Positions 20,636 through 46,226 of a stretch of DNA of 56,357 bases are shown here, in pieces. Every line of letters starts with the position of its first letter. The first letter of the stretch is position 1. Source of the stretch: a virus (lineage: Duplodnaviria > Caudoviricetes); IMG/VR virus record IMGVR_UViG_3300049982_000330, positions 1 to 56,357 of that record. One strand, given 5' to 3'. A program made the position numbers and the translations under genes. A model generated the notes under the pieces. It saw only the letters and a list, made by a program, of their open reading frames with translations. It ran no database searches and was not told where the DNA came from.

Positions 20636-20645
20636 CTAGGCCCCC

Positions 20646-26828: not shown

Positions 26829-27251
26829 TGCTCCTTTGCCGGATCGGTAGTCGGCGTGGTCTGGCCGCCGGCGGGCGGCTGGTCTGGTGGAACGACTGGA
26901 ATGGCCTGCGCGGTAGTGCCAGGCGGCTGGAGCTGGACGGAAACAAGCCCGGTGTGCACCAGGAGGCTTTCGTCCTCGGCCGCGACGGCCGCCTTCGCCG
27001 AGTCGGAGGTGAAGCCCTCCCGGACCAGACCGGTGATCGTCCGGGCTCGGATCTCAAAGATCTCGGCGGCGTCCTTGCGGTCCTCCTGCAGGAACCGGAT
27101 GTCGCGGTCGTCGTACCAGAGCTCCGCGTTGTCCGGCACCGCGACCAGGGGCGCGAGTGCCCCGGCCGCGCCGCGCCACAAAGACCTCAGCGTGCCGTCC
27201 GCGAAGCGCCTGCGGGCCATCCCGTAGTTGCCCGCGTTCAGCGAGCTGCCG
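26825..27251 (-). pseudogene. Portal protein, 3' fragment (restorable by excision)
   Basis: GSSLNAGNYGMARRRFADGT continues the 5' fragment in frame; its stop is coupled to the protease start. Confidence 0.9.
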
Positions 27252-27275
27252 TCAAGTCCGCGCTAAGGCGAAGCT
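27230..27275. other. att junction at the portal 3' side (core CGG 27249-27251, minus strand)
   Basis: Portal coding begins abruptly after ...TAG CGC GGA CTT GAC GG. Confidence 0.8.
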
Positions 27276-27380
27276 CTACTTTCATCGATCTCCAGGCGGA
27301 CGGCCAGACGGCCGCGAGCCGTGTCCCGGCAGCGCGATGCCCTCGCCAACCGGTACTTGGCGAGGGCATCGGTCATTCTC

Positions 27381-27617
27381 TTACGGGTGGCGCGGCCTGT
27401 GGGGCTCTGCGTCGTCTACCAGGCGCGGCGGCCCGGCTGGGCCGAACAGCAGCCGCGCGAGCTTCCGGGCCTGCTCGGGAGTCGGCAGCGGGGCTTTCGC
27501 CGTTTCTCGCTCGATGTGCTCGGCCGTCTCGTCGTCCAGCTCGAACAGGCGCTGTATCTCCCGCATCTCAGGCGACAGCTCGGGGGACGGCGCGGCAGCC
27601 CTGCTGCTCTTGGTCAC
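27381..27617 (-). CDS. Small protein with RDF-like C-terminal motif
   Basis: HIERETAKAPLPTPEQARKLARLL resembles the 40404-40646 product. Confidence 0.6.
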   Translation of the reverse strand: MTKSSRAAAPSPELSPEMREIQRLFELDDETAEHIERETAKAPLPTPEQARKLARLLFGPAGPPRLVDDAEPHRPRHP

Positions 27618-27790
27618 TTCTTCTTCCCCTTCTCGGGCAACGCGGCGCCTTCCTCATCCACGTACCAGCGCCACATTTCGACCGTCACCTTGGACACGTC
27701 TCCATCGGGCGCTTGCTCGCGAACCTTCTTCACCAGTTCCTCGGATGCCCCCCGGATCCCAACGAGCTTGTGCCGGTGCTGGCTCGGCAT
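27614..27790 (-). CDS. 58-aa ribbon-helix-helix-like regulator (absent from the ORF track)
   Basis: MPSQHRHKLVGIRGASEELVKKVREQAPDGDVSKVTVEMWRWYVDEEGAALPEKGKKK; GAGGGAGG RBS; GTGA coupling. Confidence 0.7.
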   Translation of the reverse strand: MPSQHRHKLVGIRGASEELVKKVREQAPDGDVSKVTVEMWRWYVDEEGAALPEKGKKK

Positions 27791-27809
27791 CGGGCCGCCC
27801 TCCCTCTTA

Positions 27810-27855
27810 GGTGGTTGACCACCCGACAGTAACAGGTCTAAGGTGGTTAACCACC
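27810..27855. promoter_or_regulatory. Pair of palindromic operators in a divergent promoter region
   Basis: GGTGGTTGACCACC (27810) and GGTGGTTAACCACC (27842), 32 bp apart. Confidence 0.75.
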
Positions 27856-27949
27856 CCCTCTTTTGAGGGAGAGGCGCCTAACCGCAAGACGGCCCCCGCC
27901 AGCGATTGCAGCGCACGGCGAGGGCCTTGATCGGAAGCAGGTCCGACCC

Positions 27950-28297
27950 ATGTCCAACCCAATCACATGCCCGACTTGGTGCGAGCGCGAGCACCCCACC
28001 AGCTACCTCGCCCATGAGCGCTACGTCGCCGAGCTCAACGCCGACGGCGGCGAGCTCGTCATCGAGGTCACCGTGAATCAGCACGTGCAGCCCGGCCGTG
28101 TCGACGCGCCCGTCATGCGCCTGTTCGCCCACCAGGGCGGCGACCACGGAGAGACCACGATCCTGGACTTGGCCGCCGACCAGGCCGCCACCCTCGGCCG
28201 GATCATCGCGCTGCTGGCGTCGCACGGCCCGGGGCACCGGTTCGGCGTGGCCCTGACCGACGCCGCCGCGGTGATCCTCGCGGGCGGTGGGCGGTGA
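27950..28297 (+). CDS. CPxWC-motif protein (DUF6907-like)
   Basis: TCPTWCEREH...H and DLAADQAATLG pattern. Confidence 0.65.
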   Translation: MSNPITCPTWCEREHPTSYLAHERYVAELNADGGELVIEVTVNQHVQPGRVDAPVMRLFAHQGGDHGETTILDLAADQAATLGRIIALLASHGPGHRFGVALTDAAAVILAGGGR

Positions 28298-28536
28298 AGG
28301 CCGAGCGCCGACCGGCCGCCACGGTCACGATCAGCGTCGAGGACCTCGACCGGCTGACGGCGGCAGCTACCACGCTGTTCGGCATCGCCAGCGAGCTCCG
28401 CATCCGCTGGGAGAACGCCGAGATCCAGGCCGGGGGCGTCCCGGACGGCATCAATCCCGCATGGGTCGCGCAGAAGCGCGCCGCCGACGGCGACCAGCTG
28501 GCCGCCCGCCGGGCCTCGAAGGGTGGCGTGCGATGA
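28294..28536 (+). CDS. Hypothetical protein
   Basis: Stop/start coupling on both sides. Confidence 0.6.
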   Translation: MKAERRPAATVTISVEDLDRLTAAATTLFGIASELRIRWENAEIQAGGVPDGINPAWVAQKRAADGDQLAARRASKGGVR

Positions 28537-28697
28537 CCACGGCCGAAGAGATCGCGTTCGTCGACGCCATGACGGCCGACGAGCTGCGCCAGGCGCTGAT
28601 GCACCTGGCCGGGTACTCACCCGACGGGTTCGCCGACGCCATCGCCAAGGTCCAGCGTGACCGCGCCTGGCGTGCCGAGATCGAGGTGTCGAAGTGA
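28533..28697 (+). CDS. Small hypothetical protein
   Basis: ATGA coupling; MTTAEEIAFVDAM... Confidence 0.55.
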   Translation: MTTAEEIAFVDAMTADELRQALMHLAGYSPDGFADAIAKVQRDRAWRAEIEVSK

Positions 28698-29464
28698 AGG
28701 GGGCCCGTGCGATCCGCTGGTCGACGGCGGCCGTCGTGGTGGCGCTCGCGGCCGTCGCCGCCGTGGTGTCCTACCGGCACGCCCTGGAGGTGATCCGCGC
28801 CCACGGCGAGAGCGGGTTCACCGCCTACCTGGTGCCGCTCACGGTCGACGGCCTGATCTACGCGTCATCCATGGTGCTGCTCGACGCCTCCCGGCGCGGC
28901 GTCCGTGTGCCGCCTCTGGCGCGGTGGACGCTCGCTCTCGGCATCGTGGCCACCCTCGCCGCCAACGTGGCTCACGGGCTCGCTCACGGCGTCGTCGGGG
29001 CGGTCGTGGCCGCGTGGCCCGCCGCCGCGTTGGTGCTGTCGTATGAACTGCTGATGGCGCTGATCCGGGGTGCGGCCGTACGGGCGACTGTCCAGAATTG
29101 GACAGTCGAGGCGGTAGCCGCACCCGTGGCCCGGGTGCCGGTGAGTCGCGAGGTGTACGACTGGGCAGCCGAGCGGGACCTGTTCGACTCCGTCGCGGCC
29201 GATGCACCCGGCGCTGTACCCGCCGACGGGCCGCCCGCCGTGGACGTACCCGGCGATGCACCCGAGGCCGACCCCGATCCCGAGTGCGCACCCGGCGACG
29301 TACCCGAGCGCGATCCGCTGTACCCGGAGGCCGTTCGCTTGTACCTCGGCGACGTCGCGAGCGGCGCCGTCCCGCCGCTGCGAGCCATCAAGGCCGACCT
29401 CGGTATAGGCCAAACCAAGGCGCAACAGGTGCAGGGCTATCTACGGACGCTCGCCGCGAGCTGA
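28694..29464 (+). CDS. DUF2637-like membrane protein with C-terminal HTH
   Basis: AAVVSYRH, PLTVDGLI, TLAANVAH, VAAWPAAAL; C-terminal PPLRAIKADLGIGQTKAQQV. Confidence 0.8.
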   Translation: MKGARAIRWSTAAVVVALAAVAAVVSYRHALEVIRAHGESGFTAYLVPLTVDGLIYASSMVLLDASRRGVRVPPLARWTLALGIVATLAANVAHGLAHGVVGAVVAAWPAAALVLSYELLMALIRGAAVRATVQNWTVEAVAAPVARVPVSREVYDWAAERDLFDSVAADAPGAVPADGPPAVDVPGDAPEADPDPECAPGDVPERDPLYPEAVRLYLGDVASGAVPPLRAIKADLGIGQTKAQQVQGYLRTLAAS

Positions 29465-29473
29465 ACGAGTCGA

Positions 29474-29511
29474 GCAGAATGCCCCGCCGGTCGACCGGCG
29501 GGGCATTCTGC
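29474..29511. terminator. Perfect 38-bp palindrome / terminator
   Basis: GCAGAATGCCCCGCCGGTCGACCGGCGGGGCATTCTGC. Confidence 0.75.
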
Positions 29512-29539
29512 GTTCCGGGGTAAGGAGTCTTCAAGGCTC

Positions 29540-29594
29540 TTGACAGCACTCCGGAGGAGGCTGACGATGCGCTGGTCCGAGAAATCTCCGGAAA
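29540..29594 (+). promoter_or_regulatory. Putative promoter and operator
   Basis: TTGACA-N17-GACGAT followed by AGAAATCTCCGGAAA, a motif repeated at 31195. Confidence 0.55.
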
Positions 29595-29616
29595 CACTCA
29601 GGAGAGGGAAAGATCG

Positions 29617-29832
29617 ATGCGCCTACAGTTCCTTGGCAAGGAAACCGACGGCGGTAACTCCCCTACGCTGTGGGACACCGACGGCGACGAGTACGTGATC
29701 CAGGGCTTTACGGTGACCGACGCCGAGGCCCTCGCGGACATCGGCGCCGTTCCTGATGGGGAGCTGATAATCCGCATCCCCAAGCGCCTGATGGACCACC
29801 TGCCGAAGGAGACACATGGACCTGCTGACTAA
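29617..29832 (+). CDS. Small protein of the DUF6879/XRE cassette
   Basis: MRLQFLGK...SPTLW...YVIQG pattern; RBS. Confidence 0.8.
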   Translation: MRLQFLGKETDGGNSPTLWDTDGDEYVIQGFTVTDAEALADIGAVPDGELIIRIPKRLMDHLPKETHGPAD

Positions 29833-30343
29833 GGAGGAATTCCAGCAGAGATTCCACGGGTCGAAGCGGGCCTTCCACCTCGAACTACGGGACGCCTACA
29901 ACGTCACCGCCGAGGATGAGCCGTTCCGGAAGTGGCAGGCCGGCGAGTACGACGACCACGCGTGGCGGCGCCCGTGGCAGGCATTCATTCGCCAGGTGAC
30001 AGGCGCCGGCTGCGCGATGCAGCGGGTCAGGGTCGTCACCGTGCCCCATGCGCGCTACACGCGATGGCTGCTCGACATCGCCGGCGACAACGTTGAGGCC
30101 GGGGAGGACATCCGATACCTGCCACGACACCTCGCCGCGGACATCGACTTCCCCCCGGAGGACTGCTGGTTGTTCGATGACGACCAGCTGGTGCTCAGCG
30201 TGTTCCCGGGCGACGGCCGGGCCGGTGCGTTCGTCGCCGAGACCGATCCCGACCTGATACGCAGGTACCTGATCGCCCGCGATCTGGTGTGGGAGCGCGC
30301 GATCCCGCACGCCGTTTATGTTCACGCGCAGCGCCGCGCCTGA
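29816..30343 (+). CDS. DUF6879-like protein
   Basis: AFHLELRDAY, RVRVV, NVEAGEDIRYLPR and DCWLFDD motifs. Confidence 0.85.
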   Translation: MDLLTKEEFQQRFHGSKRAFHLELRDAYNVTAEDEPFRKWQAGEYDDHAWRRPWQAFIRQVTGAGCAMQRVRVVTVPHARYTRWLLDIAGDNVEAGEDIRYLPRHLAADIDFPPEDCWLFDDDQLVLSVFPGDGRAGAFVAETDPDLIRRYLIARDLVWERAIPHAVYVHAQRRA

Positions 30344-30358
30344 TTCGCCGCTTCGACC

Positions 30359-31195
30359 GTGTCACAGCCGACCGACCAGGCCCGCCAGGCGCTAGGTTCC
30401 CGCCTCCGTGAGATGCGCCAGGACGCGCGGCTCACGGGCCGGGAGCTCGCCGCGCGAGCCGGTTGGCGGCCCCCGAAGGTGTCCAAGCTGGAGCACGGGC
30501 AGCAGAACGCCAGCGAGGAGGACATCCGTACCTGGTGCCAGGTGTGCGGCGCGCGGGACCAGATCCCTGAGCTGATCGCCACGGTGCGCGCGATCGAAGC
30601 GCAGTACATGGAATGGCGACGACAGATGCGGGGAGGTCAACGCCGCGTCCAGAGCGTGCTCCGCGCCGAGGATCTCTCCACCCGCCTGTATCGGATCTTC
30701 GAGCCGTTCCACATCCCCGGCTTCCTCCAGACCCGCGATTACACCCGGGTCATCATGGCGCGCAGTGCCCATTTCTACGAGGCACCGAACGACCTGGAAG
30801 CCGCTGTAGCGGCCCGTCTGGGGCGTCAGACCATTCTTCGAATGGGTGACCGCCGGTTCCACATCGTCGTGGCCGAGCAGGCCCTGTACACCCAAGTGGG
30901 CGGCCCTGAGGTGATGCGCGGCCAGCTCGCCCACCTCCTGGACGAGATGGCCGCGCTGCCCCGGCTGCGTCTCGGCGTCGTTCCCCGCGCCGCCGACTAC
31001 GAGCTCGGCCCCCACGCGGGTTACTGGATCTTCGACGCGCGGCTGGTCATGACGGAGACGGTCACGGCCGTTCTGAACGTCACCCAGCCGCGAGAGGTCG
31101 CCATGTATGAGCGGCACTTCGACGGAATAGCGGGCCTCGCGGTGTACGGCCAGGCGGCCGCTGCCCGAATTACGGCAGCGAGCGAAGCTCTCTAA
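30359..31195 (+). CDS. XRE HTH plus DUF5753-type regulator
   Basis: LREMRQDARLTGRELA...VSKLEHG; IPGFLQT.DY; EQAL. Confidence 0.9.
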   Translation: MSQPTDQARQALGSRLREMRQDARLTGRELAARAGWRPPKVSKLEHGQQNASEEDIRTWCQVCGARDQIPELIATVRAIEAQYMEWRRQMRGGQRRVQSVLRAEDLSTRLYRIFEPFHIPGFLQTRDYTRVIMARSAHFYEAPNDLEAAVAARLGRQTILRMGDRRFHIVVAEQALYTQVGGPEVMRGQLAHLLDEMAALPRLRLGVVPRAADYELGPHAGYWIFDARLVMTETVTAVLNVTQPREVAMYERHFDGIAGLAVYGQAAAARITAASEAL

Positions 31196-31321
31196 GAAAT
31201 CTCAGGAAATCTCGTTGAGTGTGACGCGTGTGCCTGCCGACGATCGGGGGGACGAAAGGCGGGCCCGCCTGGCGCTGATGACGACCAGACGAGCCCTTGA
31301 TCGGACGCGGAGGTCCGACCC

Positions 31322-31531
31322 ATGGCACACCTTAAAGCCACCTCAGTGGACGCGCCCCCAGGATGGCGGGTGTTCCGAAGCGATAAGGGCCGCTTCTGGG
31401 CCACCCGCGAGGAGCCCTACCCCGAGCCCGAGCAAACCGCGTGGCGGACCGTGGACGCCGACGACTTGACCACGCTGTGCCGGACCATCGCCGAGCAGGA
31501 GAGCCGAGCCGAGCTGGGAGCGTCATCATGA
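31322..31531 (+). CDS. Small hypothetical protein
   Basis: GGAGG RBS; GWRVFRSDKGRFWATR...RTVDADD. Confidence 0.7.
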   Translation: MAHLKATSVDAPPGWRVFRSDKGRFWATREEPYPEPEQTAWRTVDADDLTTLCRTIAEQESRAELGASS

Positions 31532-31809
31532 GCGAGTCCGATCTCCACGTCGTGGACACCGACCAGATCAGGGAACAGAAGATCGCCGCCCTGGCCCAGA
31601 CCTACCCGGCGTGGCAGATCCGGTTCGTCGGATCCACCATCGCGGGCCCCATGGGCTGGTGGGCCATGCGGCACGCTCCGCTGACCGAGGCCCAGCGCGC
31701 GGCCGGCCTGGTGCCGTCCATCGCCCGCGGCGACATCGTGTCCCTGGTGATGGAACTCGACGTCCAGGATCAGATCGCCCATCGGACCGGCTACGCGGCC
31801 CGCCCATGA
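31528..31809 (+). CDS. Hypothetical protein
   Basis: ATGA coupling; YPAWQI...WWAMR. Confidence 0.65.
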   Translation: MSESDLHVVDTDQIREQKIAALAQTYPAWQIRFVGSTIAGPMGWWAMRHAPLTEAQRAAGLVPSIARGDIVSLVMELDVQDQIAHRTGYAARP

Positions 31810-32159
31810 GCAGGCCCGGCGGTCGTCCCGCTTCCCAGGTGGAACCCGCCGGGCCGCCGCCGTGCCCAGCGTGGTGCGACTTCCAGCACTCCGAGACTGA
31901 GCCGAGCTGGCGCTGGTACTGGCGCACACATCTCGGCATGGGTCGTACGGTGCCGCTGACGGCGATGCCTTCGGTGGCCAGCCACATCCCGATGCTGATG
32001 TACGACCTCATCCAGCAGCCCGACGGCGAGCCGATGATCCGGATGCGCCGCGACGGCCGTCCGCTGGTGCGGCTCACCTCCGGCGAGGCTCAGCGCCTCG
32101 CCATGGGCCTGGTCGCGCTCGTCGACCAGGCCCGCGCGGAGGCCGAGGGCAGGGCATGA
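31806..32159 (+). CDS. Second CPxWC-motif protein
   Basis: CPAWCDFQH...H; LTSGEAQRLA. Confidence 0.6.
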   Translation: MSRPGGRPASQVEPAGPPPCPAWCDFQHSETEPSWRWYWRTHLGMGRTVPLTAMPSVASHIPMLMYDLIQQPDGEPMIRMRRDGRPLVRLTSGEAQRLAMGLVALVDQARAEAEGRA

Positions 32160-32265
32160 GCGCGCATGCCAGCACCCCGGTTCAAGGGACCTGCTCGTCT
32201 CGTGGCGGCCGAACGCTCGGCCCGCATGGACGGCCCCGGGCGCGGCCGGGCCGCCATGGTCGCGG

Positions 32266-32574
32266 TCATGGCGGGGGCGGGCCGTGGTGCTCGGTGAAGA
32301 AGCGGAGCTCCTCCCACGCCTCCGGGTCCAGCGCGGCGGCCTCGTTGAGCACCTCAGCGAGCAGGCGGCGGGGCAGGCCCGACTCTTCCCACACCGCCCC
32401 GCACGAGCACCGTACGTAGCTCGGATCGTCGCCTGTCTCGTCGAGCAGCACCGACACGGTGAGGATGTGCCGCTCACCGCAGGCCGGACAGCCGATGGGG
32501 CCGTTCAGCCCGATGGCCCCGTTCACCAGGTGCAGGGTGACCTGGGTGATCTGGTGTTCTGCGTGCCCGCTCAC
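32266..32574 (-). CDS. Zinc-ribbon protein coupled to the satellite TMP
   Basis: CPACG...CSCG; GTGA overlap. Confidence 0.65.
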   Translation of the reverse strand: MSGHAEHQITQVTLHLVNGAIGLNGPIGCPACGERHILTVSVLLDETGDDPSYVRCSCGAVWEESGLPRRLLAEVLNEAAALDPEAWEELRFFTEHHGPPPP

Positions 32575-35500
32575 CTCGAACCTCGTTCGACTTGGCGCAG
32601 CCCCTCGCGGATCTGCATGAGGATCTCCCGCCCCGCCACGGTGTGGTTCTCGAAGTTGAGCTTGGCCCCGTTGATGTTGAGCACGAAGTCTCCCTGAATG
32701 GTCGGGCCGCCTCCACGGCCGCTACTTGACGAGGTGCTCACGCTGGCGCCGGACACACTCAACGTCGACCCGCCGGAGGTCGCGAGCGCCGGCCCGCCCC
32801 CGCCGGCGAACCCGAACGTCGGTTGTATGTCCATGGTGGCCATGTCGGCCATGCCGCGAACGGCGTCGAGCACGTGCCCGTACCCGCCTTGGATGCCGCT
32901 GGCCAGGCCCATGGGGATGAACTTGCCGATCGCGGCGAACACCTTGGACGGCGAGGCGATGCCGAGGATCTTCTTGGCCCAGTCGGGCAGCAGGGCGCCG
33001 AACAGGTTCCCGATCTGCTGCTTGAACCAGTTCCACATGCCGACGATGCCGTTCCACAGCCCCGTGATCATGTTGTGGCCAAGCGTGCCGAACATGCCGG
33101 CGAGGTCGCCGATCGCGCCGAGGATCAACCCGGGCAAGCCCTTGAGCCAGGTCACCAGGTCGTTGAACTTGCTGATGGCCCAGTCCTTGGCCTTGCCGAA
33201 CCACTCGGCGAACATGGCGGGCAGGCCCGAGATCCACTTGACGATCCCGTTGACCAGGTCGGGAATGATGCTGTGGCCGATCAACGTGTCGTACAACCAG
33301 GTGAACCAGCCGACAATGGTTTTGATCTTGTCGGCGATGTCGGCGGCGAATGTCGTGATGGCCGGGATGACCACCCCAAGGATCACGCCGACGAGCTTCA
33401 CGAACATGATTTGGACCGGCGCCCACAGCCTGATCAACTCGGCGACCATCGGCAGCATCGGCGTCATCGCGGTGATGAGCTGGACGGCGGCGCCTGCCAG
33501 CTGCACCACGACCGGCGCCAACACCTTGATCCACTCGGCCATGACCGGCAGCAGCGCCTTCACGAGCTCACCCACCACCGGCAGGATCGGCGTGAGCGCT
33601 GTGATCAGCGACAGGAACGCGCCGATCAAGCCAGGCAGCAAGGGGGCGAGCTCCTGCAGATACTTCACCAGCGCCAACCCGATGGTTTGCGCGAGCTCCG
33701 ACAGCACCGGCAGCAGCGGCACGACGGCCTGCACCAGCAGCGAGAGCCCGGTCACGAAGTTCGTCGCGATCAATCCGGCGATCTGCGCGATGATCGGGAT
33801 CAGCGGGGTGATAGCCGGGACCAGCCCGGACACCAGTTGGGTGATCAGTGCGGCGATCTGCGGGAGCAACGGTGCGAGCGCCGGAACCAGGGCGTTGATC
33901 AACGTCGCGGCCAAGCCGAAGATCAGCGGCACGATCGGCGACAACGCGACCACGGCCTGCGCAAACGCCCCGACGAGCAGCTGAATCGACGGCAGAATCG
34001 CGATGATCCCCGACGCCAGGCTCGTGGCGATCAGCAGCACCAGCTGGCCGAGCACCGGCAGCAGCGGGGCGAACGCGGGCACCAGCTGGCCGATGACCGT
34101 TGCCGCCAGCCCGATGATCAGCGGGATGATCGGGGCGAGGGCGGTCAGCATCGAGGCGAACCCGCCGACGAGGACCTGAATCGGGCCCAACATCGCCTGC
34201 ATCCCGGCGGCCAGGCTGGAGGCGATCAGCGTGGCCAGCTGGGAGATCACGGGCAGCAGCGGGGACAGGGACTGCAGGATCTCGCCGAAGACGCGGACCA
34301 TCAGCTGGATCGACGGCAGCATCGCCTGTACGCCTGCAGCAAGCGTGGTGGCGATCAAGGCCGCGAGCTGGCCGACCACCGGTAGCAGAGGCGCGATGGC
34401 TGCGAGGATCCCGCCGAGCGCTGCTCCGATCGGGGCGAGCGCCGGCGCGAGCGACGCGAAACCCGTAGCCACCGCGCCGATGAACGCCTGCAAGCCGGGC
34501 AGGATCGCTGCGATGGCGGGACCGATGGCGGCGATCAGGGGCTGCACGGACGCGAAAGCGGCGCCGATGGCCTGACCGAGGGGAAGCATCGCGGGCGCCA
34601 GGGCGGCGACCGCCTGGCCGATGCCGGCGAACACCGCGATCATCCCCGGGCCGATCGCCGCGACGGCGGGACCGAGCGCGGTGATCGCCGTGGCGAGCAC
34701 CGGGCCGACCATTTGAGCCAGCTGTGCGATGACGGGGGCGAGCTGGGCGATGACGCCCACAACGGCGGTGATCACCGGCAGGAACGATTTGGCGATGGCG
34801 CTCAGCGCGGTGAACACCGCGACCAGCGTTGACTGGCCCTGCGCTGATTTGAGGAACTGGTTCATCCCGTCGAGCAGCTGGCCGATGACGCCGAGTGCGC
34901 TCGCGCCAGAGGCCTGCATGGCGGTGAAGACCGACCGCACGATGCCGCCGACGTCGCCGACGATCGAGCCGAGCTGCTTGAAGACCAGCAGGGCGTTGTC
35001 CATCCATTGCAACGCCTGACCGCTCGCCGCGGCGTTGTACATGAACAGGCCGAACCGCTGCGCCACGGCGGCGATCCCGGGCGCCAGGGCGGCCAGCCAT
35101 CCGGCGCCGACCACACCGAGGTCTCTGAAGCCGTTGAGCAGGGGCGTCAGGGCGGGGATGAAGGCGGTCACCGCGTCATGCAGCGAGGTGAACACGCTGC
35201 GGATCGCCCAGATCGACTCCGATGACCGGGCGAATTCGAGGACCTTCAGCGCGGCCTGGCCGAACTGGCCGGCCACGCTCTCCACCCCGTCGGTCAGGGC
35301 GTTGAGGACGGGCAGCAGCGACCACATCTGGCCGACCAGCGGCCCGAACAGGGCATCCTGAGCGGCGAACTTGAGGCCCTGGAAAGCGGGCGCCATTTGG
35401 AAGAGCTCGTACGCCACCTGGCCGGCGGATGCGCCCAGCCCGGCGGCGGCCGTCATGAACTTGTCGAAATCGCCGGAGATGGCGGCCGCGAAAGCGTCCC

Positions 35501-35975: not shown

Positions 35976-35977
35976 CG

Positions 35978-36223: not shown

Positions 36224-36301
36224 CCCGTCACCTCCCTGTCGCCGACTACGCCGGGTGACCAGCACGCGGTCACTCTGTGCCATCTCTTCGCCCTCACTCT
36301 G

Positions 36302-36436
36302 AGTGATGATCTTGAGGCCGATTACTCTGTGAAGTGGGGAGGGAAAAGGGCGCTAAGGGCGCGGGTCCCCCGTGATCGTTGATCTACGTCGCGAGGGTGC
36401 CCCCTCCGGCGCTATGACCTGCGAAAACGTCGCCGC
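36302..36436. repeat. Satellite copy of the putative cos/packaging site
   Basis: 132/135 identical to 46227-46361, same orientation, non-coding. Confidence 0.85.
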
Positions 36437-36964
36437 ATTGTCGCTGAGGGTCGATTGCATGCTGTTTATATGTTTGATCTTCGTCACTGAGCGTGTTTGG
36501 CGCAGTGTCACGTAACGTCATCACTTACGTCATCGCTTACGTGTTGATCTTCACGTTGTTTGCGTTGTGTGATCGGTGACTGGCTGGCCACCGCGCCATC
36601 CGCACCGCTCGGCCTCGGCTCGCGCGCATCAGCACGACGTGACGCTGTCGCGCCAGGTATGCACAGATGATCACGACTGCGAGACGCGTGAGCAGCGAGC
36701 GTCGAGCGGCGACTGTGGAAGCACGATCGCTGTGACGTACATCGTCGGCTGATGCATCGAGCTGCGTGTGATCGCTGTGTGCGAGCCATGGTGGCTGTGG
36801 TGGATAGGTGGCAGAACCGATGCTGATCAGCTCGGCGGGCGCGGTGTTCGAGCGTGACCGGCAGCGCCTGTGCCGCGTGCGGCTCGGCCGCCAGGAGGAC
36901 AGGGCCCACCGAGTGTGCCGGGCCCCCAAAGGTCGCCACCGCTCATTGGCGAATGGGCCCCGGG

Positions 36965-37495
36965 TCATGCCGTCTCCCGTGCGGCGGCCCGACGCTCGAG
37001 GTGGCACCGCTCCTCAATCCGGATCAGGGTCCGGCGTGCTGCCCCGAGGCGCTCGCCCGCCGCGCTCCGCGCCCTGTAGAGCCGACTCTCCGCAGCTTCC
37101 AGGACGTGACGCCGTGCCTGTGTGGGTTCCCTCGCGGGGTAGTCCGCCGGGGAGAGCATTGCGCCCCTCGGCCCCGTGTTCGCCCCCGCGGCCGTGGCCT
37201 CGATCAGCGCCCGTTGGTGCGCCATATCGGCCATGGTGTAGCTCGCGAGCGCCTCGTCGACGGCCTGCTGCGCCTCGGCTATCTGCGGCGCGAACCGGTC
37301 GATCACCTCCTGCTCGGCCTCGCCGATCGGGTCCGGCGCCGGACCGAGCAGCTTGCTCGGGTCGATGACCAACCCGTCGCGCCAGCAGAACCAGCCCGAG
37401 GGCATCGGGCGGCACCGCTTGGCCCCATATCCGACCGGCCTCCCGCAGCGATGGCACCGCTCGCTCGCGGCCTTGTTCTCGGCTGACAGCCTCAC
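36965..37495 (-). CDS. Hypothetical protein (Cys motif plus helical region)
   Basis: GTGA coupling to the upstream gene. Confidence 0.55.
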   Translation of the reverse strand: MRLSAENKAASERCHRCGRPVGYGAKRCRPMPSGWFCWRDGLVIDPSKLLGPAPDPIGEAEQEVIDRFAPQIAEAQQAVDEALASYTMADMAHQRALIEATAAGANTGPRGAMLSPADYPAREPTQARRHVLEAAESRLYRARSAAGERLGAARRTLIRIEERCHLERRAAARETA

Positions 37496-38496
37496 CTCGT
37501 CGCCTCCAGCCAGTAGGTGGCGCGCGCCATTTCCTCGTAGGCGCGCGCGGCATCCTCGTCGCCGCCGGCCATGTGCCTGACCTCGTGCCCGGTGATCGCG
37601 TCCAGCTCAGCCGCCTGGCACAGCGCGTCGGCGTTCAACCAGACTTCACCCGCCCAGGACACCGCCTTGCCGAGCAGCTGGTCACTCGGCCAGCCGAAGC
37701 CCGGCCGGGCGGACTCGCCGTACATCTCCAGGTAGTCGCGTTCGCCGTCGGTCTCGCTGCGGAACCAGCGCAGCCGAGGCCGCGGGGCGACCTTCAACCG
37801 CTCGCAGTGCTTGGTAAGCGCCGAGTCGACGATGACGCGTTTCCAGGCCGGAACCTCATCCGCCGCGAGTTCGACGTACCAGCTCGACACGTGCCGCTCC
37901 GCTTCCATCAGGACCGTGCGCGCGTGCTCGCGTTCCTCAAGATCCCGAAGGTTCCGCTTCACGATTTCGCAGGTGTTGACGACGGCGAGCCGCTCCATCC
38001 ACGCCCGGGTCTCGGCGTCGAGTTCGCCGGGCGGCCTGTTGTGCTTGACGGCGAGGGTCCGCGTGCCCACGCCAGCCCCGCGAAGGACTGGGCTGACCTC
38101 GAACACCTGTACCTCTTCGATGAAGCGCACCCGCTGGCCGGCGAACTCGCCGAACGACTCCTTGGTCACGTTGTAGCCGTAGCTCCACTCCTGGAGGCCG
38201 CCGAGCTGCTTGACGACGGTGAAGGTGTCGCGACCGGCCATGGTGTCGAGGAAGAACCGGCCTTCCAGGATCGCCTCATTGGCGGTCTGCCGGATGGTGC
38301 CCAGCCCGACCGGAAGCTCGCCGTCCCAGGTCCTGTGGCCGTAGCTGGAAATCACGACGGGCGCACCGTCGGCGAACGCTCCCGGCCGTGTCACATCCCG
38401 ATCGGAGTCGATCGCGTTGAACGTCGAGAAGATGGCCCGCACTTCGCCCTTGGACTCGTCCTTGATCTCCAGCAGGAGACTCTTGGTGTCCACCAT
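37492..38496 (-). CDS. Prohead protease paralog fused to an HEXXH domain
   Basis: First ~150 aa align with the helper protease; C-terminal ITGHEVRHMAG. Confidence 0.85.
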   Translation of the reverse strand: MVDTKSLLLEIKDESKGEVRAIFSTFNAIDSDRDVTRPGAFADGAPVVISSYGHRTWDGELPVGLGTIRQTANEAILEGRFFLDTMAGRDTFTVVKQLGGLQEWSYGYNVTKESFGEFAGQRVRFIEEVQVFEVSPVLRGAGVGTRTLAVKHNRPPGELDAETRAWMERLAVVNTCEIVKRNLRDLEEREHARTVLMEAERHVSSWYVELAADEVPAWKRVIVDSALTKHCERLKVAPRPRLRWFRSETDGERDYLEMYGESARPGFGWPSDQLLGKAVSWAGEVWLNADALCQAAELDAITGHEVRHMAGGDEDAARAYEEMARATYWLEATR

Positions 38497-38886
38497 TCAC
38501 CCCTCCCTTCTGCGCGCGGCCTCGGCCGCGACGGCGTCGCGCTCGAAGACCCACCGGCCCCGCTCCAGGCGTCCGCCGAGTTCGGCGGCGAGCTGGCGCA
38601 CGCGGCGCGCGGTGAGTCCGAGCAGCGCCGCGACCTGATCGGCGCTCAGAGGCGAGGATCGCCCGATTTCCGCGATCGGCGTTTCCGAGCTTCCGTTCGG
38701 CAGGTCAGGGCGTTTCCGCGCCCGTCCGGCTCGCTCCAGGTCACCGATCGCGGCCAGCAGCTCGGCACGCGCGTGCGGCGCCACCCGATCGAAGTAGCCC
38801 TTCCGCGCCAGGTCGCGAAGGGCGACGCCGGCGAGCTGCGCGATCTGCCCGGACAGGACCGCGGCGTCCTGGACGTAGGCCACCAA
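38497..38886 (-). CDS. HTH DNA-binding protein (excisionase/AlpA-like C-terminus)
   Basis: LSADQVAALLGLTARRVRQLA...GRWVF. Confidence 0.75.
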   Translation of the reverse strand: MVAYVQDAAVLSGQIAQLAGVALRDLARKGYFDRVAPHARAELLAAIGDLERAGRARKRPDLPNGSSETPIAEIGRSSPLSADQVAALLGLTARRVRQLAAELGGRLERGRWVFERDAVAAEAARRREG

Positions 38887-38887
38887 C

Positions 38888-39055
38888 TCACCTGCCGTCC
38901 GCGGCTCGGACGGGCCAGCGCTCGCTAAAACAAAGGACGTGCATCCAGTCGCCTCGGGCGCCGATGCGGCAGATCCGTTCCCCGATGTGGATCGCGCGAC
39001 GACACAGCGGACAACGGCTCTCCCTGCGCGCCTTCCGCGCGTGGGTGGCGATCAT
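38888..39055 (-). CDS. Small zinc-finger protein
   Basis: CPLC...IHIGERI...WMHVLC. Confidence 0.6.
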   Translation of the reverse strand: MIATHARKARRESRCPLCRRAIHIGERICRIGARGDWMHVLCFSERWPVRAADGR

Positions 39056-39888
39056 GCCGACCTCGCCATGGCCCGGCACTGCGGGCACTGCGGCAGACCG
39101 GTGTCCGGGCGCGCCTGGTCGCCGCCGGGTGTGCCGTGCTCGCACGGCGGCATCTGACCGATCGAGGCCAACCACACGCCGATGTCGGACCGGCCGCGCG
39201 CCGTACGTACCCGCACGAGCACCGGGGCCAGGTCCCCGTGATGGGCCATGGTGCGCAGGAGGCCGGGAAGCGATCGGACCTTGTTCTCAGCCTCGATCGT
39301 CTTGATGACGCTCTCTGCCTCCTCCTCGGTGGCGCCCGTGGCGGCCGTCACGATCCGTACGGCTCGCGCCCGCGCGGATGAGGAGTTCTTGAGGATCTCT
39401 GAGGAGATGGGTCCCCCGCTTGGGGGAGCTTCAGCACTTGAAGCTCTCCCGCTTGGGGGAGCTTCGGGACCAGGCGGGGGAGCTTCAGCACTCGAAGGTC
39501 TCCCGGATGGGGGAGCTTCAAGCTCTCCCGCTTGGGGGAGCTTCAGCGCCGGGCATTCGCCGGGCCTCGGAATGTAGAACTCCATGGCATGGCCGTTGCA
39601 GGCGAAGAGCATGCGCCCCCGGTCGTCAGTGACCGCCTGGCCCTGCTTGTCGCGGACCGGCACGCGGAGCTCGATGCCGTTCGCTCCGAGTTTGCCCAGC
39701 ACCTTGCCGAGCTGCTTGAGGTCTGCAAAGCCCGTCCGGCGGATCACCGTCGCGATCACCGCTCCGCCGTACGCGCGGCGAGTCCGCTCGTTGGCCTGGT
39801 CGGCGATCTCCAGGGCCACCAGCCGCTCGCCGGAGGACAGGCCAGGCGGCAGATGCTCGGCGAGCCAGCGCCGCAGCTCGTAACCCAT
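39052..39888 (-). CDS. Putative replication initiator
   Basis: LSSGERLVALEIADQAN wHTH-like N-terminus, internal iterons, C-terminal CEH...CPQC; start ATG 39888. Confidence 0.7.
   Translation of the reverse strand: MGYELRRWLAEHLPPGLSSGERLVALEIADQANERTRRAYGGAVIATVIRRTGFADLKQLGKVLGKLGANGIELRVPVRDKQGQAVTDDRGRMLFACNGHAMEFYIPRPGECPALKLPQAGELEAPPSGRPSSAEAPPPGPEAPPSGRASSAEAPPSGGPISSEILKNSSSARARAVRIVTAATGATEEEAESVIKTIEAENKVRSLPGLLRTMAHHGDLAPVLVRVRTARGRSDIGVWLASIGQMPPCEHGTPGGDQARPDTGLPQCPQCRAMARSA
39422..39544. repeat. Five GGGGGAGCTTC direct repeats (putative ori iterons)
   Basis: Copies at 39422, 39455, 39476, 39509 and 39534. Confidence 0.8.
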
Positions 39889-40169
39889 CAGGTCTCGCCG
39901 GCTTCCTGCTCTTCGCGCTCCCGGCGAAGCGCCTCGGCACTGATCTCCACCAGGGCCCGGCGCCGCGGCGAGGTGTTCATCTGGTCGCCGTGCATCGCGG
40001 GCGGCAGTCGGCCGTTCCACATATCCGGCGTACTGAAGAACAGCGGCGCCTGCGTGAGCCGGGCGCGCAGGTCGACGTACGCGAGCACCCGGGCCCGGCG
40101 CGCGGCGCACTCAGCTCGCTCATCGGCAGCGGCCTTCCTCAGCAGCGCTGCCCACTCCTGGCCCTTCAC
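39888..40169 (-). CDS. Hypothetical protein
   Basis: Coupled within the operon. Confidence 0.6.
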   Translation of the reverse strand: MKGQEWAALLRKAAADERAECAARRARVLAYVDLRARLTQAPLFFSTPDMWNGRLPPAMHGDQMNTSPRRRALVEISAEALRREREEQEAGET

Positions 40170-40414
40170 GGCGTCACGCCCGCGAGCGTGCCGCGCTGCC
40201 GGGCGATCTGACCCAGCTCCTCGAGTTGGGTCAAGCGGTCAAGGACGCGTTGCCGATCAGCTGGCCGCAACGACCGCAGCGCGGCGGCAGCAGACCGCCC
40301 ACAGGAGTTTGCCCGCGCTCTGTCGGACCGGCGCTGTACGCTGACACCATCGTCGTTAACGCGTTTCGAGGCCGCTCCTGCCCGGGGGCGGCCTTCGGCG
40401 TTCTCAGGCCACAT
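40166..40414 (-). CDS. Hypothetical protein
   Basis: GGAGG RBS; coupled to the next gene. Confidence 0.45.
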   Translation of the reverse strand: MWPENAEGRPRAGAASKRVNDDGVSVQRRSDRARANSCGRSAAAALRSLRPADRQRVLDRLTQLEELGQIARQRGTLAGVTP

Positions 40415-40646
40415 GGCGCACCTCCCCGCCCGCGTCCTGGTGGCCGAGGAGCACCTGAGCGAGGCGCACGCGTTGCTCGGGAGTCGGACTCGGTTCTGAA
40501 CCGATGAGCCGCTGGATGTAGTCCTCTGCGGCTAGGACCTTGAGGTCCCGGCGCTGGGTTTCAACCAGCTCAAGCCGATCCGGATGATGGCGCCTGGTGG
40601 CTGCGTGCTGTGCCCGTAAGCGGCGGCGCTCAGGAGAAAGAGACAT
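40404..40646 (-). CDS. Putative recombination directionality factor (phiRv1 Rv1584c-like)
   Basis: RRDLKVLAAEDYIQRLIGSEPSPTPEQRVRLAQVLL matches my recollection of the phiRv1 RDF pattern; downstream of the serine integrase. Confidence 0.65.
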   Translation of the reverse strand: MSLSPERRRLRAQHAATRRHHPDRLELVETQRRDLKVLAAEDYIQRLIGSEPSPTPEQRVRLAQVLLGHQDAGGEVRHVA

Positions 40647-40795
40647 GGATCCCCCAGAAGGCAAATGCCTTGTAAGGGGCTCCTCATACGTGGCCGTCTC
40701 GGGAGCCGGTTTCGCGTCGCCGGGTAGACCAGGCCCCACGTAGGCCCCGCGACACGCCCTGCCGTGCACAGGACAGTAGCAAGTCACCCAGGCGT

Positions 40796-41095
40796 TCACA
40801 TGCCATATCGGCTAGGAGGCTGGAGAGATTCAGTCGGACCGTAACTCTCGTCCAGATTGGAATGATCAACACGAGAAAGCCCCGGACCTTGGTCCAGGGC
40901 TTCGTCTCTGCACTGAGCACAATGGCACTGCGGCGGAGGATCGACGGGCAGGCCGGCGGCTATCTTCTGCCGTCGCCGTTCCAGCGCCACGGCGAGCATG
41001 CGCACCGTCCGATGCACCCTCGCCGTCATGCCAGCGGAGTTTTCCTCGGGATCGTGGGTCTCAGACATGGCTGGAAATATCCTTTCCTTGCGCAT
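40796..41095 (-). CDS. Hypothetical protein
   Basis: ORF with CHCAQC; weak support. Confidence 0.35.
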   Translation of the reverse strand: MRKERIFPAMSETHDPEENSAGMTARVHRTVRMLAVALERRRQKIAAGLPVDPPPQCHCAQCRDEALDQGPGLSRVDHSNLDESYGPTESLQPPSRYGM

Positions 41096-41098
41096 AGC

Positions 41099-41131
41099 AA
41101 AGAGCCGCGAGGGATATGCTCGCGGCTCTTT
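41099..41131 (-). terminator. Terminator downstream of the integrase
   Basis: 13-bp stem AAAGAGCCGCGAG/CTCGCGGCTCTTT. Confidence 0.75.
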
Positions 41132-41154
41132 CGCTGGGTTTAGGTGCAGCGCGC

Positions 41155-42849
41155 CTACCGGCGCCAGGTGATTGTCATTCGGTCAGTGTTCGCCGTTGGG
41201 CGACGATTCTTCCCCGGGCCGGGCTCGTACCCCAGTTCTTGGATGGCGGCTCTCACACGCTTCTCCAGTTCGGGTGACTTGGCCTTTCCCAGGATTACCA
41301 GACTGACGAACCCCTGACTGACACCAGCGTGCTCGGCAACGTCCTTCTGCGTCACGCGCTTGGTGGAGTGAAGGGACCGATTCTCGTAGTGGATCGTGAC
41401 CTTTGCGATCCAGTCATCGACGAATTTCCGTTGCTCGTCGAGATGCATCTCCGGCCACAAGGTCCGAAGCTCCTCGGGGTCGATGTCCCCGACCGGTGCA
41501 GGCAGCTCGGCGAGCTCGCGTTCGAACGTCTGAGCCTCCTTCATCAGCCCGTCATTCATGACGTTGAACTGCTCCGTGGTGAGCTTGCGCCCGTTCCACA
41601 TCTGAGCCAGCTCACCGCGCCGAAGGTCGAGGGCATCGAGTTTCTTCACCAGGTCTTCGCGGCGCGCGAAAAAACTGTCCTGTGCGAGCAGTCGGGCGGC
41701 GTTGTACTCCTTCAGCTTCTTGAAAAGGTGAACGGCTACGTGTCCTTCTGCCGCCCTGGCGTCGATGGTCGTCCGGCCACATCCGCCGGTCACCTTCGTG
41801 TCGCAGGCGTAGTAGGCGTAGTCGCCGCTGGGCCGCGCCTGCATTGGCTTGTCACAGACCCCGCAGAACGCCCGGTAACCGGTCAGCAGGTAGGCACGCC
41901 CCGACCTGCGTCGCGTCTTCTTCCGCGAACCGATGACGGCGCACAGCGCCCGCCATGTCACCTCGTCAAGGATGGGGGGCCAAGTCGCTTTACCCACGAT
42001 CTCGCCTCGGTGGACACGCAGCCCGGCAACGCACGGCGCGGTCAGGAAGTCGGCAACGCTCGTGGCAACGAACCGGCCGCCGTGCTTGCCTCGCAGGCCC
42101 CTGCTGTTAAGCCACGCGGCTACGTGCGCCAGGCCCCATCCGTTCAGGATGCGGTTGGCGCACTCCGTGATGATCTCGGCTTCCTCGGGCATGATCTCGG
42201 CGCTCTTGCGTCCCTGCTCATCGAGGACGGCCCGCCCGCCCGCAGGCCGCGGATTGTCGGCCTTCCACTGCCGCATCTCCTGGCCGCGGATCCTGGCCTG
42301 ATGGCGGCGCTCCTGCCACTCCTGGAGGCGGCTCTGCTCCTCCGGAGTCAGGATCACCTGCCGGTAGCCGTAGCCGAGACGGCCAGGCGGGCGCCCCTGT
42401 GAGGCAAGTTCGCTTTTTTTATCGAGGATGCGCTTCCGGAGCTGCTTGACCTCGTGCGCGCCGAGAACCGCATTGATCCCCGCGAAGACGCCGTCAACGT
42501 CGATGACGCCGTTCCGCTTGGTGTGAACCTCCGTGACACCAGCCTGCGCGAGGTCGGCCGCCAAGCTGAACCACTCGACCTCGCGGCGGGTGAGCCGGTT
42601 CTGCTCGACGGACCACAGGTGAGCAGACTCGCCGCGCCGGATCGCGTCCCGCATCTTCTCGAACTCCGGGCGAAAGACATCGTCCTTGGCCGCCGACAAG
42701 TCGTTGTCGGCGAAGACCTTGATCGGCATGTCGGGCCACCGGTCCCCGGCGTACTCGCGGCCCCACTTCTCCTGTGCCTGCACCCCCTCGGCGCGTCCTT
42801 GCTGGTCGGCGCTGATCCGGCAGTAGATGAAGACGTATCCCGTGCTCAT
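41155..42849 (-). CDS. Large serine recombinase (integrase) with LacI-type HTH insert
   Basis: YCRIS catalytic motif, DNDLSA, RPEF, NRLTR; zinc ribbon CGVC...YYAC...C; coiled coil. Confidence 0.95.
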   Translation of the reverse strand: MSTGYVFIYCRISADQQGRAEGVQAQEKWGREYAGDRWPDMPIKVFADNDLSAAKDDVFRPEFEKMRDAIRRGESAHLWSVEQNRLTRREVEWFSLAADLAQAGVTEVHTKRNGVIDVDGVFAGINAVLGAHEVKQLRKRILDKKSELASQGRPPGRLGYGYRQVILTPEEQSRLQEWQERRHQARIRGQEMRQWKADNPRPAGGRAVLDEQGRKSAEIMPEEAEIITECANRILNGWGLAHVAAWLNSRGLRGKHGGRFVATSVADFLTAPCVAGLRVHRGEIVGKATWPPILDEVTWRALCAVIGSRKKTRRRSGRAYLLTGYRAFCGVCDKPMQARPSGDYAYYACDTKVTGGCGRTTIDARAAEGHVAVHLFKKLKEYNAARLLAQDSFFARREDLVKKLDALDLRRGELAQMWNGRKLTTEQFNVMNDGLMKEAQTFERELAELPAPVGDIDPEELRTLWPEMHLDEQRKFVDDWIAKVTIHYENRSLHSTKRVTQKDVAEHAGVSQGFVSLVILGKAKSPELEKRVRAAIQELGYEPGPGKNRRPTANTDRMTITWRR

Positions 42850-43865
42850 AGTTCGGATTGTGGTTTAGGTGGGGTGCAACCGGCGAGCCCTTCGCTGAAG
42901 CCCACGATGACCGCCGGGACACCGGCCGCCGCCGCCATGCGCGTCTCGCCGGCGCCCTGGGTCGCCTTGAAGTCGAGCTGCTGCAGGTCCTTGCCGACGA
43001 CGTTCACATCCGCGCCGCCGCCCAGGTAGAGCGTCTTGTACGCGTTGTCGACGCCCCGGTGCTGCTCGTTCATGACGGCGATGAACCGCTTGAGCATGTC
43101 GGGCGTGACGCTGGCGTCCAGCGACACAACGACCTGCGGCGTCGCGCCGTTCTCGAAGAACGCGCCCTTGTGCTTGGTCGCCGCGAGGTCGGAGGAGATC
43201 TCCCGCAGGATCGGGGTGATCCAGCTCATGCCCCGCCAGTGGCACTCCGGGTCCGGGATGGGCGCGAAGTGCGCCACCTGCGACGGAAGGAGGAACCACT
43301 CCTTCTTCGTCATGGGCGGCGCGTAGAAGTAGCCGAGCACCTCGGCGTCCAGCGCGTGGCCGTACAGCTCCGGCTCGGACTTGGAGCCGCTGACGATCGT
43401 CACCCAGTCGGGCCGGAGCCGGCGCAGGCGGCCGGGCTGACCGGGCACCTTGGCGATGAAGGAGTTGCCCGCCAGGTCGACGTCTTGGATCTTCCTGGCC
43501 AGCAGGTCACCGGTGGTGCCGTTCGGCCACGGCCGCTCGAGCAAAGCGAGGTCCTTGTTGCCGAACAGGTCACCCGGGCGGCCGTTCTTGATCCGCCGGA
43601 ACTGGAAGCGGGCCTCGGAGAAGACGAGCATCCGGGTCGCCATCAGCGCGAAGATGGGGCCGTTGGACTTCGCGATGCCCTGGACGTAGCCCTCGAAGTC
43701 GTTCTCGATCTGCTCGCGCTCACCGTTCAGCGACGTCGAGCCGAGGAACGGGAAGCGCAGCCGATCGAGATCCCAGAAGTCTGGCTCCGACCAACCCTTC
43801 TGCGGATTCCGGGCAGGCTTACGCCCGCCACGGTGCGCCGCCGTGACCCGCTCGATCAGGCCCAT
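42846..43865 (-). pseudogene. Portal protein, 5' fragment (HK97-type)
   Basis: LLERPWPN, LAGN, LRPDWV, GMSW, FFENGATP and AAAAGVP motifs; follows terL. Confidence 0.92.
42850..42900. other. att junction at the portal 5' side (core CGG 42880-42882, minus strand)
   Basis: Portal-like sequence ends at ...GFSEGLAG, followed by 10 unrelated codons and a TGA overlapping the integrase ATG. Confidence 0.8.
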
Positions 43866-44330: not shown

Positions 44331-44340
44331 CTGCTCTCCC

Positions 44341-46184: not shown

Positions 46185-46226
46185 TCCGACCCCCTCACGC
46201 AGCGTGATTCCAGGATGGTCACTCCA

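Follow-up and report, generated by a model that had tools for sequence, protein, structure and literature searches.

The DNA analyzed here, referred to as the window, is a single IMG/VR provirus record of 56,357 bp with 68% G+C (IMGVR_UViG_3300049982_000330), for which CheckV estimates a completeness of 84%. It contains the genes of a siphovirus prophage (the helper), nearly all of them on the minus strand, and a 15,631-bp insert that splits the portal gene of this prophage and carries its own integrase gene, int (Table 1). The nearest intact homologs of the portal protein come from genomes of Streptosporangium, Sphaerisporangium, Nonomuraea and Microbispora and from soil metagenomes, suggesting that the prophage is an actinobacterial siphovirus of the Streptosporangiaceae type. 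The morphogenesis and lysis gene set of the helper is complete except for the split portal.

The two parts of the portal gene lie at the two ends of the insert. The N-terminal piece matches the Pfam family Phage_portal (PF04860) over profile positions 35-241 of 321 (E 4.7e-29), and its open reading frame (ORF; 43865..42846) ends in portal sequence with ...AVIVGFSEGLAG before running through 11 foreign codons to a TGA. At the other end, the minus-strand frame 27262..26825 reads ...DG and then, across the junction, SSLNAGNYGMARRRFADG, from where it continues through to the portal C-terminus and stop codon; this C-terminal piece is 79% identical to the intact portal P0003. Alignment with eight intact portals of 450-470 amino acids (aa) showed that the pieces abut at GFSEGLAG, followed directly by SSLNAGNYG, and that together they cover a full-length HK97-type portal (PF04860) end to end. 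The rejoined gene has 986 + 424 = 1410 nucleotides (nt), which encode a stop and 469 aa, one residue fewer than the 470 aa of the closest intact homolog. A first-pass annotation, made by a model from the sequence and its ORFs, had claimed this split and this restored length, and the alignment, in which no column is missing or doubled, bears out both. Both halves of the portal retain open frames and conserved residues. A replacement sequence for the portal is absent at the junction, so the portal is truly split and could be restored only by precise excision.

The only sequence common to the two junctions is CGG on the minus strand. Past this 3-nt core the flanks are foreign sequence, and the portal is split at one codon. 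We used the 90 nt on each side of the junction as separate queries against related prophage loci. Of the 26 loci that matched both arms, 20 had a spacing of exactly 3 nt between them, and in the remaining six the alignments did not extend as far as the arm ends. Because the arms meet exactly at the 3-nt core, the insert is 15,631 bp long and the restored portal has 469 aa. A large serine integrase placed this 15.6-kb element at a 2-3-bp core in an invariant glycine codon of the portal; the serine integrase and the CGG shared by the junctions had already been named in the first-pass annotation.

The split lies in the most conserved part of the portal. When 119 portal homologs were aligned, the 16-residue segment VGFSEGLAGSSLNAGN was the most conserved of 454 such segments, and the one centred on the junction ranked third. 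In 33 of 40 portal genes of related loci, the middle three bases of the site read xGG. Serine integrases require identity only at the central dinucleotide, and GG in an invariant GGN glycine codon would provide a matching dinucleotide in nearly every variant of the target. The conservation shows the portal to be a chosen target and not a random hit. An 8-bp inverted repeat in the rejoined site was considered as the symmetry axis of the recombinase and rejected because its centre is 2-3 nt off the core. An attP within the phage's own portal was also rejected, since the foreign DNA lies between the two halves and not outside them.

Both junctions were crossed with no differences in an independent assembly, the Logan contigs of the probable source run. 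The left junction lies in a 5,358-nt contig, covering 26300-28023 of the window, and the right junction in a 9,891-nt contig, covering 36407-44300. Depth was about 24 on both junction contigs, and insert and helper were alike at 21-26. Joints found near the site in a second Logan run were considered as an excision product and rejected; they are inexact and come from diverged intact portals.

Table 1. Features of the window discussed in the text; positions are those of the 56,357-bp record.
Feature	Position	Strand	Description
Inserted element, 15,631 bp	27252..42882		About 89% coding; bounded by the two portal parts
Portal 5' part, 327 portal residues	43865..42883	-	PF04860; 84% identity to an intact 470-aa portal
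Portal 3' part, 140 residues and stop	27248..26825	-	Aligns with the C-terminal 140 residues of eight intact portals
Core copy, left junction	27249-27251		ccg on plus strand, CGG on minus strand; in invariant Gly codon of portal
Core copy, right junction	42880-42882		CGG on minus strand
Large serine integrase, 564 aa	42849..41155	-	Insert; PF00239, PF07508, PF13408, PF00356
99-aa ORF	40796..41095	-	Insert; directly after int; no Pfam or PHROG family
131-aa ORF	40404..40799	-	Insert; no family match
129-aa protein	38497..38886	-	Insert; weak C-terminal HTH_17 match (excisionase/AlpA-type), E 0.0026, below the Pfam cut-off
Two-domain protease, 334 aa	37492..38496	-	Insert; N-terminal S78 prohead serine protease, C-terminal HExxH...E
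p176, 176 aa	36965..37495	-	Insert; four-Cys zinc-ribbon-like N-terminus and helical hairpin
Shared non-coding segment, insert copy	36294-36487	-	About 95 nt upstream of insert tape measure gene
Tape measure paralog, 1209 aa	32571..36200	-	Insert; PHROG tape measure families
102-aa ORF	32266..32574	-	Insert; overlaps tape measure stop; high G+C at third codon positions; no family match
Opposite-strand block	27863..32159	+	Insert; DUF6907, 80-aa ORF, DUF2637, DUF6879, XRE-HTH/DUF5753 regulator, second DUF6907 (Pfam)
HNH endonuclease	47219..46935	-	Helper
terS	46880..46443	-	Helper
Shared non-coding segment, helper copy	46219-46411	-	terS-terL spacer
terL	46122..44341	-	Helper
78-aa ORF	44101..43865	-	Helper
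Prohead protease	26828..25731	-	Helper; PF04586; directly downstream of portal 3' part
Major capsid protein	25723..24461	-	Helper; PF05065
Head-tail adaptor	19409..18570	-	Helper
Major tail protein	13378..12890	-	Helper
Tail assembly chaperone	12871..12437	-	Helper
Tape measure protein, 1131 aa	12238..8843	-	Helper
Minor tail protein	8241..4870	-	Helper
Endolysin	3505..2054	-	Helper

All large ORFs of the insert are intact. A scan of the insert ORFs with Pfam and PHROGs detected no families of capsid, portal, terminase, tail or lysis proteins, in agreement with the earlier claim that head and terminase genes are lacking. When 47 helper ORFs were used as queries in a six-frame search of the insert, paralogs were detected for two only, the tape measure protein and the prohead protease, which are the two paralogs that had been named before, and there was no pseudogene debris of helper-type genes. 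The genes for the integrase, the 129-aa helix-turn-helix (HTH) protein, the protease, p176 and the tape measure protein are on the minus strand, co-oriented with the portal. The order protease, p176, shared non-coding segment, tape measure gene is not colinear with the phage genome and could not, therefore, be produced from it by simple deletions. The size ratio of insert to helper is at most 0.38 (15.6 kb versus at least 40.7 kb); for P4 and P2, and for SaPI and 80alpha, the ratio of satellite to helper is about one third.

The Pfam scan of the insert ORFs gave no relaxase or DUF87/HerA match, and an AICE-type conjugative element was rejected because neither a DUF87/HerA nor a Rep match was present in that scan. 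PADLOC returned only weak HTH matches in the insert as a sign of defence systems, and there were no Rfam matches and no tRNAs. Two short tandem repeats were observed. One is a 25-bp repeat in two copies, partly palindromic, at 39495-39545 within a long ORF (39052-40110), and the other is a 12-bp repeat in 2.3 copies at 36515-36542, immediately upstream of the shared non-coding segment. The iterons of the first-pass annotation may be these two repeats.

The integrase is, judging from its domains, a large serine recombinase of the phage type. Its Pfam matches are Resolvase (PF00239, E 1.1e-13), Recombinase (PF07508, E 3.7e-12) and Zn_ribbon_recom (PF13408, E 1.1e-06), and residues R11, I12 and S13, which include the serine of the R-x-S motif, are almost invariant in 19 members of the integrase clade. 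The int ATG is 30 nt from the core, and it overlaps the TGA of the truncated portal frame in the sequence ATGA at 42846-42849. Neither a Shine-Dalgarno-like sequence nor another purine-rich run is present in the 40 nt upstream of int. The 18 relatives in the clade, at 43-78% identity, all come from metagenomes, where their contigs are short, and isolate genomes contributed none. The C-terminus of the integrase (residues 502-543, window positions 41155-41350) carries an unusual LacI-type HTH domain (PF00356), which Pfam lists for 12 of the 18 closest relatives.

Several small ORFs without family matches follow int in the same direction, and two of them have homologs in the same position elsewhere. 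A tblastn search showed a homolog of the 99-aa ORF (62% identity over 48 aa) directly after a 51%-identical integrase on another contig (L007:1841-1984). Homologs of the 131-aa ORF were found by tblastn just after serine integrases on two contigs (L091 and L106), and also on a third (L060). Both ORFs are candidates for a recombination directionality factor (RDF) or a regulator. For the 'RDF-like' gene of the first-pass annotation, the HTH_17 match behind the label (E 0.0026) falls below the Pfam threshold; the gene bearing this match is 2.3 kb from int. The element with the 51%-identical integrase carries a Fic/DOC-family gene at L007:3729-4355; besides Fic, it contains YdjM and a phosphoesterase, and it has only the small ORF after int in common with the insert.

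The insert and the helper share DNA in two places. The first is the tape measure gene. The two tape measure proteins are 77% identical (BLASTP), and the genes contain an exact run of 1,391 bp (33814-35204 in the insert, 10113-11503 in the helper). Beyond this run, identity falls sharply to about 67% at one end and tapers off at the other; outside the exact repeat the genes are 67-97% identical. The exact repeat looks like the product of a recent gene conversion. The Logan unitig of the exact run had a depth of 43.6, compared with 21-26 in the unique parts, as expected for two real copies, and the Logan unitigs break within the tape measure gene.

The second is a non-coding segment, whose core (36294-36436, 143 nt) is 96.5% identical between insert and helper (blastn and alignment). 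A promoter-like sequence, TTCACA-16-GATCAT, is present in both copies, and these are the only two sigma-70-like matches in 27000-46600. The segment has no Rfam matches and no matches in the phage collection, and its RNA fold z-score of -1.0 is not unusual. Acting as a late promoter, it could put the tape measure gene of the element under helper late control. The first-pass annotation had described a copy of cos in the insert; the copied helper segment is there and may be cos, a late promoter being as likely. The element exchanged DNA very recently with this same prophage.

The other helper-related gene of the insert encodes a fusion. Its N-terminal domain is 56% identical to the prohead protease of the helper, and its C-terminal half is unrelated to, and absent from, the helper protease. 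In an alignment of 25 sequences, H304, E305 and H308 are invariant, together with a downstream Glu. The AlphaFold (AF2) model of the fusion has a mean predicted local distance difference test score (pLDDT) of 88.3, and its HExxH...E domain is predicted to be shaped like a minigluzincin. The best Foldseek matches of this half were the minigluzincins selecase and abylysin, at weak E-values of 0.026-0.33 and probabilities of 0.95-1.0. At least 23 full-length cluster representatives of the fusion were among the 150 matches listed from a library of 1.84 billion proteins. None was found in IMG/VR, from which only ordinary proteases with the N-terminal domain were returned, or in the phage collection, where the C-terminal domain by itself, like p176, also had no match.

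The next gene encodes p176, which had no match in Pfam, PHROGs or IMG/VR. Its residues 58-176 align to helical hairpins of a structure atlas, and its gene position suggests a scaffold-like role. The module of HTH protein, protease fusion, p176 and tape-measure-like protein recurs in the same order on an unrelated 14.4-kb metagenome contig (L074:1-11004), where the fusion is encoded at L074:313-1344. The HTH protein has a 34%-identical homolog in the same position on that contig, and the p176 homolog after the protease is 44% identical. L074 additionally encodes a HerA/DUF87 (HerA/FtsK-like) ATPase, a DUF2637 protein and a different serine integrase. With the module recurring in L074, and the fusion in the protein library but in neither IMG/VR nor the phage collection, the module is part of an element family not called viral by virus detectors.

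Taken together, we believe with moderate confidence that the insert is a helper-embedded, phage-satellite-like element of the actinobacterial siphovirus prophage. Its gene content fits a satellite, as no genes for head, terminase, tail or lysis were recognised in it and helper-related parts are present. On this reading, induction would lead to replication of the composite by the helper, and such helper-driven replication would explain the missing replication gene in the element. Late transcription from upstream of terL would run through the portal stump into the element, and ribosomes ending on the stump could re-initiate on int. With a putative directionality factor, the element would excise and the portal would be restored. 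While the element is integrated, its convergent plus-strand block (27.9-32.2 kb) would cut the downstream late genes off; excision would reconnect the protease, capsid, tail and probably the lysis genes to the late promoter. The 15.6-kb circle would then be packaged by the helper terminase and capsid, and the protease fusion, p176 and the tape measure protein of the element would perhaps alter capsid or tail assembly.

Several results weigh against this reading. We searched for sibling elements by tblastn with both portal halves and 12-25 insert and helper proteins. The single integrase protein identified five loci in genome contigs (31-65% identity) and none in viral contigs, and the alignment of its clade identified 80 loci in metagenome contigs and 80 in viral contigs. 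None of the fetched integrase loci adjoins a portal, so that the split portals which the first-pass annotation had proposed to look for beside this integrase clade did not appear, and the six integrases of highest similarity have upstream flanks that bear no relation to the attP arm. Related prophage loci that carry both halves of the portal numbered 58 in IMG/VR, and none of them is interrupted, which leaves the window as a single instance. No other truncated portal was present among the best 120 portal homologs listed, the window's own protein excepted. In 57 other C-terminal fragments of portals, the starting positions are spread out and do not cluster here: six start at positions 327-344, with about 6.5 expected.

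The element and its helper also lack parts. The Pfam and PHROGs scans of the insert ORFs recognised no replication protein, primase or Rep family, and what had been called 'rep/iteron genes' comes down to the two short tandem repeats described above. The element is without a verified RDF. A helper integrase was not found within the 56,357-bp window, and because of this and the completeness estimate of 84% the helper itself may be defective. The shared segment may be cos, and is as likely to be a late promoter. The exact 1.39-kb repeat, being longer than short reads, could in principle be an assembly effect. An excised form was absent from the Logan contigs of four runs; this search covered assembled contigs only, and its outcome is not evidence against excision.

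Elements that split a gene at a tiny core through a large serine recombinase, and rebuild it by precise excision at a defined stage, are known from skin (SpoIVCA) in sigK and from SPbeta (SprA) in spsM. Whereas these interrupt host developmental genes and benefit the programme of the cell, the insert interrupts a gene of another mobile element. The PLEs of Vibrio cholerae are satellites that integrate and excise by a large serine recombinase; they reside in chromosomal repeats, parasitise a lytic phage and obtain their directionality factor from that phage. The recombinase type is what PLEs and the insert have in common, and there is no similarity in gene content.

Embedding of a satellite in a helper late gene has been described for helper-embedded phage-inducible chromosomal islands (HE-PICIs). 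The main text of Tommasini, Mageeney & Williams (NAR Genom Bioinform 2023; PMC10111431) reports 491 HE-PICIs at 14 sites in cognates of lambda late genes, several of them portal sites. The first-pass annotation had named only satellite families that integrate in host chromosomal sites, and its premise is out of date, because HE-PICIs sit in prophage late genes, the portal included (PMC10111431). According to that text, HE-PICIs are co-oriented with the late gene, bring no replacement sequence and make use of a 'regulated gene integrity' that serves the satellite; they capture helper late genes, and in an experiment the composite excised and replicated before the HE-PICI satellite excised. One of them, 11capE, has 258 bp at 90% identity in common with its helper at cos (PMC10111431). 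By this description, the insert is alike in its co-orientation with the late operon, in the lack of a replacement sequence, in its captured helper late genes and in having a non-coding stretch of about 200 bp, at an identity of about 90%, in common with the helper.

The differences from HE-PICIs, as far as they are described there, are as follows. The integrases of HE-PICIs are tyrosine recombinases from a single clade, 'the only type used' (PMC10111431), whereas the insert has a large serine integrase and a 3-nt core. They carry AlpA beside int, a Bro-N zone and a primase/replication zone, none of which was recognised in the insert. Their hosts are Gram-negative, their helpers lambdoid and their portals of the Phage_portal_2 family, in contrast to the actinobacterial host and the HK97-type PF04860 portal of the insert. 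The cargo of the insert, namely the protease/HExxH fusion, p176 and the tape measure protein, differs from HE-PICI cargo. Excision has been demonstrated for HE-PICIs (PMC10111431), while the insert is known from sequence alone. Neither 'serine' nor 'actinobacteria' appears anywhere in the main text of that paper. By its integrase type, and with no AlpA or primase zone recognised, the insert is not an HE-PICI, although by analogy it would work like one.

An actinobacterial parallel is provided by the EPIPs, the roughly 11-kb satellites of a Mycolicibacterium prophage, which were obtained in the form of free particles (Qian et al., bioRxiv Dec 2025; PMC12822802). EPIPs and the insert, which we compared by description only, are alike in their actinobacterial host, serine integrase, HTH protein, small genome (about 11 versus 15.6 kb), scaffold-type head genes, closest similarity to prophage proteins and tape measure gene, which is unusual in satellites. 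EPIPs are reported to carry terS, a head-to-tail adaptor and a stopper (PMC12822802), whereas the Pfam and PHROGs scans of the insert ORFs detected none of these three. The main text of PMC12822802 does not report integration within a helper gene for EPIPs. Our literature searches, which covered the main texts of PMC10111431 and PMC12822802, found no report of a serine-integrase element with this gene set in the portal of an actinobacterial prophage. Helper-embedding is thus already known, and what appears to be new here is the recombinase family, the phylum and the gene content, a novelty that is real but much smaller than the first-pass annotation claimed.

A more specific version of the satellite reading is possible, and we put it forward only tentatively. 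The insert would represent a second origin of helper-embedding, independent of HE-PICIs, in an actinobacterial lineage whose large serine integrase, with its LacI-type HTH tail, targets the GG of the invariant glycine codon in the best-conserved block of HK97-type portals. Coupling of int translation to the portal stump would let helper late translation trigger excision. Replication genes would have been given up, replication being supplied in cis by the helper, and particles would be reshaped by the dual serine/metallo-protease, p176 and the element's own tape measure protein.

Alternatively, a related temperate phage or mosaic element could have entered the portal, lost most of its genes and become fixed, leaving a portal that is broken for good and two decaying partners. 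The paralogs of the tape measure protein and the protease are genes of phages, which fits this history, and the lack of a helper integrase in the window, the incomplete record (84% by CheckV), the equal depth of insert and helper with no excised form among the contigs, and the single instance would all follow from it. We consider this history unlikely: the large ORFs are all intact at about 89% coding, the 47 helper queries reveal no capsid, terminase, portal or tail debris, and the portal halves keep their open frames and conserved residues. The gene order that is not colinear with a phage genome and the recurrence of the module in L074 also argue against it.

We give equally little credence to the idea that the insert is an island unrelated to satellites, which uses the portal block as its attB or acts as a 'lock' that disables the prophage for the benefit of the cell or of the element, and which is not packaged by this phage. 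Such an island would hardly need morphogenetic genes like the protease fusion and the tape measure gene, which have little use where no virion is made, and its co-orientation and stop-start overlap with the late operon fit helper-driven expression. Nevertheless, islands typically pick conserved sites and the target is the most conserved portal block, the plus-strand genes for DUF2637, DUF6879 and XRE/DUF5753 resemble actinobacterial island cargo, and the shared segment is possibly a promoter and not cos. L074 pairs the module with a HerA/FtsK-like DUF87 protein and DUF2637, a hint of conjugative-type transfer; DUF87/HerA, relaxase and Rep matches are, in turn, absent from the scanned insert ORFs. 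The near-identical copy of the spacer upstream of terL also speaks for a satellite, being what HE-PICIs share with their helpers at cos according to the main text of PMC10111431.

That the assembly joined two co-occurring phages into a chimera is highly improbable, even for a metagenome contig with an exact internal repeat of 1.39 kb and with Logan unitigs that break inside the tape measure gene, because the two independent contigs cross the junctions without mismatch at equal depth of insert and helper, and the junctions are far from the repeat, share only 3 nt and are in phase at one portal codon, as those of a random chimera would not be.

If the insert is indeed a helper-embedded satellite, then embedding in a helper late gene would be a recurrent solution, involving an unrelated family of recombinases, a second phylum and a different portal family, and not a peculiarity of one enterobacterial integrase clade. 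Serine integrases need no homology beyond 2 bp and leave no scar. The switch would therefore be cleaner than that of tyrosine integrases, and the site would offer a natural portal-specific attB/attP pair. The fusion of prohead protease and HExxH domain and the zinc-ribbon coiled-coil protein, which recur together, are candidate factors for redirecting capsid or tail assembly in actinobacterial phages. For the annotation of prophages, a 'broken' portal may be an occupied portal.

Two further regions of the helper were noted. The head-tail connector genes are separated from the major tail gene by about 8 kb (14232-22373) of large minus-strand ORFs without phage-family matches; among these are ORFs for proteins of 575 aa (with a weak GDSL-lipase match), 409 aa, 423 aa and 395 aa (with a LamG-type match), and the stretch is unusually long for this position. 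In the early region (49240-50091 and 52496-52867), one gene encodes a protein (PHROG 17239) whose nuclease domain resembles HSDR_N of type I restriction systems, and another, divergently oriented, encodes a PadR-type regulator.

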